Position numbers and translations under genes: made by a program. A stretch of 64,000 nt of DNA from positions 2,144,001 to 2,208,000 of the forward strand of contig CBDBGH010000003.1 of NCBI GenBank assembly GCA_965205265.1, read 5' to 3'. Source of the DNA: Alphaproteobacteria bacterium. GTDB lineage: Bacteria > Pseudomonadota > Alphaproteobacteria > Bin95. Shown here in pieces: positions 15,155 to 15,685 of this stretch. Below the pieces are notes generated by a model. It saw only the letters and a program-made list of their open reading frames with translations, had not been told where the DNA came from and made no database searches. Each line of letters opens with the position of its first letter. The first letter of the stretch is position 1.

Positions 15155-15685
15155 CTACCCGGCCGCGTCGCAGGTCCTCGTCGGCAGGCCGGGCCCGCCG
15201 GTGCGGGCGCTGCGGCGTTCGAACAGCAGCACGTCGTGCCAGACGCCGTCCAGATGCCCGTAGCGCTCCCGGCAGCCGACCTCGCGGAAGCCGCATTTCC
15301 GGTGGAGCGCGATGCTGGGCTCGTTGGCGACCATGATCTGCGCCTGGAGCGTCCAATAGCCTTCCGCCTCGGAGGCCGCGATCAGGCCTTCCAGCAGGGC
15401 AGTTCCGGTCCCCGACCCTTGCGCGCTTTCGCCGACATAGACGCTGACCTCAGCGACACCGGCAGCGCCTCAGGTGTCGGGCGCGGGCGTCAGCGCCGCC
15501 CAGCCGACCGCGCGGCCGTCATCGCCGCGCACGACCAGCCTGCCGATAGCCAGATGGCCCTTGTTCCACGCCTTCCAGCTCGGCGGGTTCTTCATGAAAG
15601 CGGCGATGCCCGTCCTCAGGCCCGTGCGGTAGATGGCGCGGACCTCGGGCCAGTCGCTGTCCCGCATCGCGTCGATGACGATCAT
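15155..15685 (-). CDS. GNAT N-acetyltransferase (phosphinothricin/ArsN1/YncA-like) with in-frame UGA, putative selenoprotein, 176 aa
   Basis: ...GWAALTPAPDT-UGA(15470-15472)-GAAGVAEVSVYVGESAQGSGTGTALL...NEPSIALHRKCGFREVG...VWHDVLLFERRS; the frame stays open to TAG at 15155. Confidence 0.8.
15431..15463 (-). promoter_or_regulatory. SECIS-like hairpin of the GNAT gene
   Basis: Upper stem CGCUG-AGGU-CAGCG on lower stem GCCGG/UCGGC, starting 7 nt after the UGA. Confidence 0.6.

Follow-up and report, generated by a model that had tools for sequence, protein, structure and literature searches.

Almost all bacterial selenoproteins are oxidoreductases. The signal that recodes UGA as selenocysteine (Sec) in bacteria, the Sec insertion sequence (SECIS), has been described by the bSECIS model, which, in the part of its text available (PMC13188914), calls for a loop of 3 to 9 nt, an upper stem of 4 to 16 bp, a spacing of 16 to 37 nt between UGA and loop, a G in the first two loop positions, mostly followed by G or U, and a folding energy of -7.5 kcal/mol or lower. 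Among the GNAT N-acetyltransferases, which transfer acetyl groups from acetyl-CoA, the described system closest to the gene treated here is ArsN1 of P. putida (PpArsN1; PDB 5JTF, 5WPH, and 6M7G; NCBIfam NF040503). According to its structural description (PMC6465285), the acceptor site is built from both subunits: Ile31, Phe33, Ala124, Val158, Gly122, Val86, and Tyr89 come from one, and Arg75, Ala76, Arg77, and Tyr80 from the partner. Here we analyze a 64,000-nt stretch of an alphaproteobacterial genome (Alphaproteobacteria bacterium, GTDB Bin95; assembly GCA_965205265.1, contig CBDBGH010000003.1, positions 2,144,001 to 2,208,000; hereafter the window) and a gene on its minus strand, Sec-GNAT, for which an earlier note made from the DNA letters had proposed a Sec-containing GNAT acetyltransferase. 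The comparisons reported below support that proposal, and none of the observations tested as possible refutations turned out that way. We consider it highly probable, from the sequence evidence, that the gene encodes a genuine selenoprotein and represents a new clade of the phosphinothricin/arsinothricin acetyltransferase (PAT/ArsN1/MddA) branch of the GNAT enzymes.

The frame opens with an ATG at 15685, runs for 71 codons to a TGA at 15472-15470, continues in frame for 104 codons, and closes with a TAG at 15157-15155. This agrees with the 71-residue open reading frame (ORF) and 104-codon continuation claimed earlier and places both on the minus strand (coordinates of all elements are collected in Table 1). 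The GNAT motifs that had been pointed out, VAEVSVYV, QGSGTG, NEPSIALHRKCGF, and WHDVLLFERRS, are all found in the read-through product. Four Pfam GNAT families match this 176-residue protein above their cut-offs, among them PF00583 (53.6 bits, cut-off 20.7) and PF13420 (33 bits, cut-off 24.3). No NCBIfam model reaches its own cut-off on the protein; the best match is NF040503 (ArsN1 family A), with 116.9 bits under a cut-off of 170, and the phosphinothricin N-acetyltransferase equivalog NF040502 scores 59.6 bits against a cut-off of 300. Among solved structures, phosphinothricin acetyltransferases and their relatives are nearest in sequence (E values of 1e-14 to 1e-19). An AlphaFold2 model, built with 35 family members as input, has a mean predicted local distance difference test (pLDDT) score of 88.2, and its top Foldseek matches are PA4866, PSPTO_3321, BAR, and ArsN1, each with a template modeling (TM) score of about 0.8. 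By its sequence, Sec-GNAT is a member of the GNAT superfamily and of its PAT/ArsN1/MddA branch.

The elements typical of this fold are kept. The QGSGTG motif, presumably the acetyl-CoA loop as in other GNATs, has Gly at residue 94 in 88% of 59 sequences. Glu79 in strand β4, presumably the general base as in PAT and BAR, is found in 35 of 35 Sec forms, and the same position is Glu in 115 of 120 non-Sec homologs. Because the GNAT core, the acetyl-CoA loop, and the β4 Glu are all retained, binding of acetyl-CoA is probably kept as well. Sec-GNAT shares with ArsN1 the β4 sequence VAEVSVYV, the acetyl-CoA loop, and the residues of the C-terminal strand. The other structures close to it in sequence and fold, BAR/PAT (5T7E), PSPTO_3321 (9IGK and 9IGL), PA4866 (2J8M), and YncA (3DR6), have neither Cys nor Sec at the column of the TGA (PSPTO_3321 has Ala), and none has the C-terminal tail described below.

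The identity of the residue that the TGA replaces is given by the nearest homologs. In the best 120 hits of a full-length search in a collection of 5.8 billion proteins, which are metagenomic and 53 to 61% identical to Sec-GNAT, the aligned column is Cys in 107; the Cys that the earlier note had placed beneath the UGA is the right one, and the homolog comparison it suggested comes out in its favor. Ser, Arg, and Tyr flanking the column are invariant in all 120 homologs and are Pro, Thr, and Ala in this gene. Within the Sec clade, T71, G73, and A74 beside the TGA are in turn conserved in 35 of 35 sequences.

The TGA itself recurs in each of three surveys. A six-frame search of 41 related genomes yielded orthologs of 65 to 99% identity in 16, each with one in-frame TGA and each with that TGA at the identical column (16/16). 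The carriers are the window's own genome, 13 congeners, one genome of another genus in the family, and one from another family. A degenerate pattern that allowed TGA, TGC, or TGT at the column and left the wobble positions of codons 73 to 82 free, except that Ser81 was held to AGY, was then run against a genome collection of 185,579 species. All 55 loci obtained carry TGA, although TGC and TGT were permitted. They lie mostly in alphaproteobacterial metagenome-assembled genomes; three are labeled Granulosicoccaceae or Pseudohongiella, which are gammaproteobacterial groups. In metagenomes, 35 of 69 loci have TGA at the column, so that recurrence of the codon, which the earlier note had made a point of, extends to 15 other related genomes, every pattern match, and about half of the metagenome loci. 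A profile search of 1.84 billion representative proteins returned as its top match P0124, a protein of 173 residues with Trp at the column. Since the DNA of its relatives in metagenomes has TGA at the Trp position, this Trp is a translation artifact, apparently of a gene caller set to a genetic code in which TGA means Trp. These relatives (loci L123 to L143) make up a second Sec subclade of low guanine-cytosine (GC) content with the motif SST-U-GY[VI]G. Over all surveys, the TGA motif is present in 106 of 140 loci, which comprise 91 distinct sequence contexts with locus GC contents from 0.34 to 0.73.

The reading frame beyond the TGA behaves as coding sequence. No further stop is found in 87 of the 91 distinct TGA sequences, and the median ratio of nonsynonymous to synonymous substitution rates (dN/dS, Nei-Gojobori) is 0.26 upstream of the TGA (418 pairs) and 0.22 downstream (428 pairs), values that are rough at a dS of about 1.3. 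The part after the TGA is under purifying selection. The codon was also recovered outside this assembly, as a contig assembled from a run of another study spans 15335-15485, TGA included, with 0 differences. A contig from a run labeled as metatranscriptome covers 15195-15799 with 47 differences and comes from a relative; no difference at 15470-15472 is among those listed. Libraries with this label may contain DNA and their contigs do not show transcripts, and the contig was not used as evidence.

Immediately 3' of the TGA lies the element that would direct its decoding. The earlier note had described a hairpin, CGCUG-AGGU-CAGCG, which we find at 15455-15442 on the minus strand as a 5-bp stem CGCUG/CAGCG with an AGGU loop, extended by a U.U mismatch and a closing G-C pair to 18 nt. 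The 18-nt hairpin begins 12 nt and the 5-bp stem 14 nt after the UGA, and the first loop base follows after 19 nt. Its loop of 4 nt, with G at position 2 followed by another G, its 5-bp stem, and its spacing fall within the bSECIS ranges of PMC13188914; Sec-GNAT shares these with the bacterial consensus, and its hairpin differs from other bacterial SECIS elements in being very short and fixed in sequence across a family with GC contents of 0.34 to 0.73. When 48 nt counted from the UGA are folded, the minimum free energy is -17.3 kcal/mol, which satisfies the energy limit of the model, and the core is part of that structure. E. coli fdhF, the bacterial SECIS prototype to whose loop the earlier note had likened this one, has a GGUC loop at a similar distance.

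What sets the hairpin apart is the absence of synonymous change. Synonymous sites were tabulated from 54 of the 55 pattern-scan loci (one lacks flanking sequence) and 7 of the 16 loci of relatives, the others being duplicates; of these 61 sequences, two were dropped as frameshifted or truncated and 59 kept. Codons 77 to 81 read GTC GCT GAG GTC AGC in all 59 without a single synonymous substitution, and at codon 82, 57 have GTC and 2 have GTT. Neighboring residues that are just as invariant at the protein level have codon entropies of 1.0 to 1.9 bits (four codons each for Gly73, Ala74, and Gly76, two each for Tyr83 and Asp70), and the codons of the flanking invariant Thr residues likewise vary freely. 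The 14-nt core is present in 88 of the 91 distinct TGA contexts, and the low-GC subclade retains the same 16 to 17 nt of the hairpin. Where the AGC codon varies among the TGA contexts, it is AGT in two, AAC in one, and ATC in one; the change to AGT turns a G-C pair into G-U and keeps the pairing. By comparison, 31 metagenome homologs without TGA have the VAEVSV motif exactly or with 1 to 2 substitutions, written in other codons, and the 14-nt core occurs in none of them. In the 5.7-Mb genome, the core occurs once. The conservation check put forward in the earlier note thus gave synonymous sites that are fixed, and fixed only in TGA-bearing forms. With the same high probability that we give to the selenoprotein as a whole, the hairpin behaves as an RNA element and would be a minimal, sequence-fixed SECIS.

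The earlier note had also named selA, selB, selC, and selD as genes to look for, and the genome of the window has all of them: selA and selB adjacent to each other, selD, and selC in the form of a tRNA-SeC with anticodon TCA. A selA match over the cut-off is present in 16 of 16 carriers among the relatives, compared with 5 of 16 outgroup genomes of the same class, and in 48 of another 50 carriers, all of them genomes of unknown completeness. These 50 were drawn from the 55 pattern loci; L060, L063, L068, L072, and L073 were excluded as apparently belonging to genomes of the same genus already covered. An in-frame TGA also occurs in two Redoxin-family genes of this genome. The formate dehydrogenase matches in the genome contain no TGA and so offer no SECIS comparator, and the two Redoxin-family genes were used in their place. 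The second Redoxin-family gene, outside the window at G000:C3:2813942-2814340 (+), has one in-frame TGA (…KADTRG-U-TVEG…) and is a further candidate selenoprotein. The selD match, at G000:C3:4511043-4511930 (+), lies inside an open frame of 754 residues, so that a fusion of SelD to another domain may exist; a Redoxin match and weak tRNA-like matches are found within 3 kb of it.

Comparison of 35 Sec forms with the 120 Cys-type homologs revealed that the Sec clade is set apart by more than its TGA. It has undergone the switches I23L, T29A, R71T, C72U, V73G, Y74A, G116Q, and K/Q/R144 to His, and it carries a C-terminal extension, GGxxLPTxxC, in which C172, G163, G164, and L167 are invariant (35/35). 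The tail is present in 87 of the 91 distinct TGA forms, one of the rest being frameshifted and three cut by contig ends, and in none of the 120 non-Sec homologs. These homologs, uncharacterized "SDRCVYAG" GNATs, are the nearest relatives of Sec-GNAT in the tree and have the same length up to about residue 165; unlike Sec-GNAT, they keep Ser69, Arg71, and Tyr74 (120/120 each) and Gly116, and they lack the tail, the TGA, and the hairpin.

The switches can be placed on ArsN1 through the contacts listed in PMC6465285. At an offset of 6, the Cys-type consensus has R71, Y74, V80, and Y83 where ArsN1 has Arg77, Tyr80, Val86, and Tyr89, and it has G116 at the position of Gly122. Unlike ArsN1, the Sec clade has not kept the contacts Arg75, Arg77, Tyr80, and Gly122, which are P/A69, T71, A74, and Q116, invariant or nearly so, and it has in addition Sec directly after the Arg77 position and the Cys-containing tail. 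In an HMMER alignment to PSPTO_3321, U72 likewise stands directly after the R-P-R of that protein. Sec72 would accordingly sit one residue past the Arg77 position, on the gating loop that reaches into the acceptor site of the partner subunit, and most of the Sec-clade switches appear to line that site; the dimer itself is assumed for Sec-GNAT from the same ArsN1 paper. As U72 and the tail strictly co-occur and the tail follows the strand that bears the Val158 equivalent, we hypothesize that U72 and C172 come into contact. The substrates implied by the earlier note, phosphinothricin, arsinothricin, and methionine sulfoximine, are doubtful, because the Arg and Tyr with which ArsN1 binds its substrate are Thr and Ala here. 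Two distant homologs without Sec, P0217 and P0244, have Cys-rich C-terminal extensions together with a Cys at the Arg71 position in one and beside Tyr74 in the other; in these two, thiols alone may form an analogue of the Sec/Cys pair.

A quick IQ-TREE maximum-likelihood tree with 106 rows places every one of its 63 Sec rows on one side of a branch with a Shimodaira-Hasegawa-like approximate likelihood ratio test (SH-aLRT) support of 95, and two Sec subclades have supports of 99 and 96. Left out of the tree were all proteins of at least 200 residues, tblastn matches that covered under 140 residues of the query, matches interrupted by two or more stops, and two of every three among P0003 to P0039 and P0125 to P0159. 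Since the Sec rows group on one side of a branch, the tree fits a single origin at which TGA, hairpin, and tail arose together. A Cys-less paralog of 169 residues with about 52% identity is kept beside it in most genomes of the genus, which indicates that the Sec form is an additional gene. Sec-GNAT DNA is also found in marine and sponge-labeled metagenomes. In the public protein collection, the high-GC subclade is represented by 22 clusters of N-terminal fragments of 70 to 77 residues, one of them named YncA, and the 120 best matches to the full-length protein include no complete Sec-GNAT. The family escapes annotation because gene calls stop at the TGA or translate it as Trp.

Several observations weigh against this interpretation or limit it. 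Sec insertion at UGA72 is deduced from sequence. The conserved core of the hairpin is short (5 bp) and reaches -6.6 kcal/mol alone, which is weaker than the -7.5 kcal/mol of the consensus model; the extended lower stem differs among orthologs and is not conserved in all; and the folding energy is not unusual for GC-rich sequence when compared with shuffles (z = -0.16). As folding energy is uninformative in GC-rich DNA, the significance of the hairpin rests on its conservation. Rfam gave four matches, all far under their gathering scores and none of them a bacterial SECIS model. Of the 50 further carrier genomes, the two in which selA was not found are of unknown completeness. A Cys-bearing ortholog with the same tail was not found in the genome pattern scan, the 120 homologs, or the profile search, so that the pairing of Sec with Cys rests on the more distant homologs. 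The tail has pLDDT values of 59 and 43 in the monomer model, too low to establish a U72-C172 contact, and the mapping onto ArsN1 relies on motif register (offset 6, with four residues in agreement) and on the alignment to another PAT, not on residue-level superposition. Lastly, no conserved gene neighborhood that would hint at a substrate was seen in the 55 genome loci.

Some of these points lend themselves to a different account, namely that the UGA is read through without Sec, for example by a near-cognate tRNA for Trp, Cys, or Arg, with the hairpin stimulating read-through or pausing or regulating the ratio of the 71-residue to the full-length product. The short stem with its unremarkable energy, the two carrier genomes without a selA match, and the indirect assignment of Sec itself would all suit it. 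We nevertheless regard it as improbable, given that the hairpin conforms to the bacterial SECIS model in its loop, spacing, and stem and that the Sec machinery is present here and accompanies the gene in nearly all carriers at a frequency well above that of the outgroup. Furthermore, the Cys column of the homologs and the co-gained invariant Cys are what one expects beside a selenol but not beside Trp or Arg. A split gene, in which the 71-residue N-terminal peptide would join a C-terminal peptide with a start codon of its own to build the GNAT fold, might be suspected from the public gene calls, where the 22 clusters of 70- to 77-residue ORFs are listed as proteins. However, the first in-frame ATG, GTG, or TTG after the TGA is that of Met118, and a start there would drop strand β4 and the acetyl-CoA loop, while the frame across the TGA is kept in all orthologs; this arrangement is very unlikely.

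Decay of a Cys-type gene is even less attractive. TGA is a single step from TGC or TGT, and the changes of the nearby Ser, Arg, and Tyr would, taken alone, resemble local degeneration of a pseudogene. Yet the TGA and the altered neighbors are kept in 91 distinct sequences over the whole range of GC content, 87 of them free of other stops, with a downstream dN/dS of 0.22 and T71, G73, and A74 unchanged in every one of the 35 Sec forms; nor are the related loci copies of one contaminant, as they are between 52% and 94% identical to the protein of the window. Such decay is extremely improbable, and an error of sequencing or assembly in this genome is the least credible explanation of all: a single wrong base is always conceivable in general, but the contig from the other study agrees with the assembly throughout the region of the codon, and the same codon stands in independently assembled genomes and metagenomes. 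A pair of compensating frameshifts around the TGA was also considered and rejected, as no frame of the 45 nt, inspected by eye, restores S-x-R-C-x-Y at the right spacing.

Under the selenoprotein interpretation, UGA72 would be decoded as Sec. As the SECIS, the 18-nt hairpin would bring SelB with its Sec-tRNA(Sec) to a ribosome that pauses at this codon. The clade would have lost the acceptor-binding Arg, Tyr, and Gly (R71T, Y74A, and G116Q, together with T29A and a new His144) and gained a flexible C-terminal tail ending in the invariant Cys172, so that the acceptor pocket may have been rebuilt around a selenol/thiol pair of U72 and C172. What this pair might do can be outlined in three ways, weighed here as shares of the whole. 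By analogy with the Sec forms of arsenite methyltransferase, it could capture a thiophilic, metalloid-type group of an amino-acid-like acceptor during acetylation of the amine; alternatively, the pair could form a selenenylsulfide whose redox state opens or closes the site. We rank these two about equally, each as a possibility that we hold loosely, and place lower, as rather unlikely, a role in which Sec takes the acetyl group itself as a selenoester. It is also worth considering, with no more than tentative support from us, that Sec72 has a non-redox function in group transfer, either by holding an amino-acid substrate with an arsenic- or selenium-type group in a Se/S chelate with Cys172 during acetylation of its amine or by taking the acetyl group from acetyl-CoA as a selenoester in a ping-pong mechanism.

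A precedent for Sec outside oxidoreduction is provided by arsenite methylation, in which Cys residues of ArsM have a ligand role. The Global Ocean Sampling selenoproteome (PMC2398784) lists a Sec form of arsenite S-adenosylmethyltransferase, and Sec-GNAT resembles it in having Sec in a group-transfer enzyme, where it probably replaces a ligand-binding Cys. Sec-GNAT differs from that enzyme in fold and cofactor. No ars genes are found near it.

Table 1. Elements of the Sec-GNAT gene and their positions in the window
Feature	Position	Strand	Remarks
Sec-GNAT coding sequence	15155..15685	minus	Read-through translation of 176 residues including U72, then TAG
In-frame TGA, proposed Sec codon (residue 72)	15470..15472	minus	Column conserved across surveys
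Extended lower stem around the core hairpin	15430..15467	minus	Predicted fold in this sequence
Candidate SECIS core hairpin, GUCGCUGAGGUCAGCGUC	15440..15457	minus	18 nt; overlaps codons V77 to V82
Codon of Glu79 in strand β4 (VAEVSVYV)	15449..15451	minus	Conservation
Acetyl-CoA pyrophosphate-binding motif Q89-G94 (QGSGTG)	15404..15421	minus	G92 in 34 of 35 sequences
C-terminal tail G163-C172 (GGPGLPTRTC)	15170..15199	minus	Codon of Cys172 at 15170-15172

Downstream of Sec-GNAT, after 67 nt and on the same strand, lies an AhpC/TSA-like (Prx-like) gene (14605-15087, minus; PF00578, 70 bits). It has an in-frame TGA of its own at 14953-14955, within FYRGHW-U-PYC (a U-x-x-C motif), and a small hairpin, CCGUC-AGUUG-GACGG, that starts 11 nt after this UGA. 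The interval between these genes showed no terminator-like site. This arrangement, TGA included, recurs in 4 of the 55 related loci, and the AhpC/TSA-like gene was rejected as a conserved operon partner because it is adjacent in those 4 only. The commonest neighbor cluster (13 of 55 loci) looks like ordinary synteny and was likewise not taken as a functional partner. The closest recurrent neighbor is a divergent protein of about 193 residues (MATPIRRVVMGHDDNGK…), encoded immediately upstream in L054 and 8 other loci (9 of 55).

Farther along the minus strand, an ORF at 12850-14004 has a homocysteine S-methyltransferase domain (PF02574, 313.9 bits) and looks like the N-terminal part of a methionine synthase, and a staphylococcal-nuclease-like ORF (PF00565) occupies 14022-14546 on the plus strand. 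On the other side of Sec-GNAT, a divergent set of three genes (15766-21312, plus) consists of a 289-residue ORF without a Pfam match, an ORF resembling Y-family (IMS) polymerases, and an ORF resembling the alpha subunit of Pol III with PHP, DNA_pol3_alpha, finger, HHH, and OB domains; we take this set to resemble the imuA-imuB-dnaE2 mutagenesis cassette. Upstream of it, an intergenic GAAC-N7-GAAC at 15791-15805 (plus), presumably similar to an alphaproteobacterial LexA box, overlaps the only sigma-70-like promoter match (15773-15801).

The remark in the earlier note that a Sec-containing GNAT is not known as an established family agrees with the main texts of the selenoproteome literature. The family is not mentioned in the main texts of PMC13188914, PMC12013277, PMC13326102, PMC9312934, bioRxiv 10.1101/2022.07.06.499078, PMC2398784, and PMC1088965, although their supplementary tables, including the BSepDB family list, could name it. 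Nor is it listed in the prokaryotic selenoprotein reviews and databases that were searched. We regard it as a new family of selenoproteins that joins two systems already known, bacterial Sec decoding and the GNAT enzymes. Judged by the sequences compared here, Sec-GNAT appears to be the first member of a widespread, unannotated, mostly alphaproteobacterial family with Sec at the substrate site. The family is not rare, with 55 species-level genomes in the 185,579-species collection and further members in metagenomes, and its fixed hairpin sequence offers an easy search key for more. A SECIS so small and invariant over a twofold range of GC content would also make a natural model for the minimal requirements of recognition by SelB. 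The constant pairing of a C-terminal Cys with a Sec in the acceptor pocket of a transferase fold that depends on acetyl-CoA suggests a chemistry that has not been described for GNATs. If the role in group transfer were true, the acyl-CoA N-acyltransferase superfamily would have its first selenoenzyme in Sec-GNAT, and selenium would have one of its rare uses other than in oxidoreduction.

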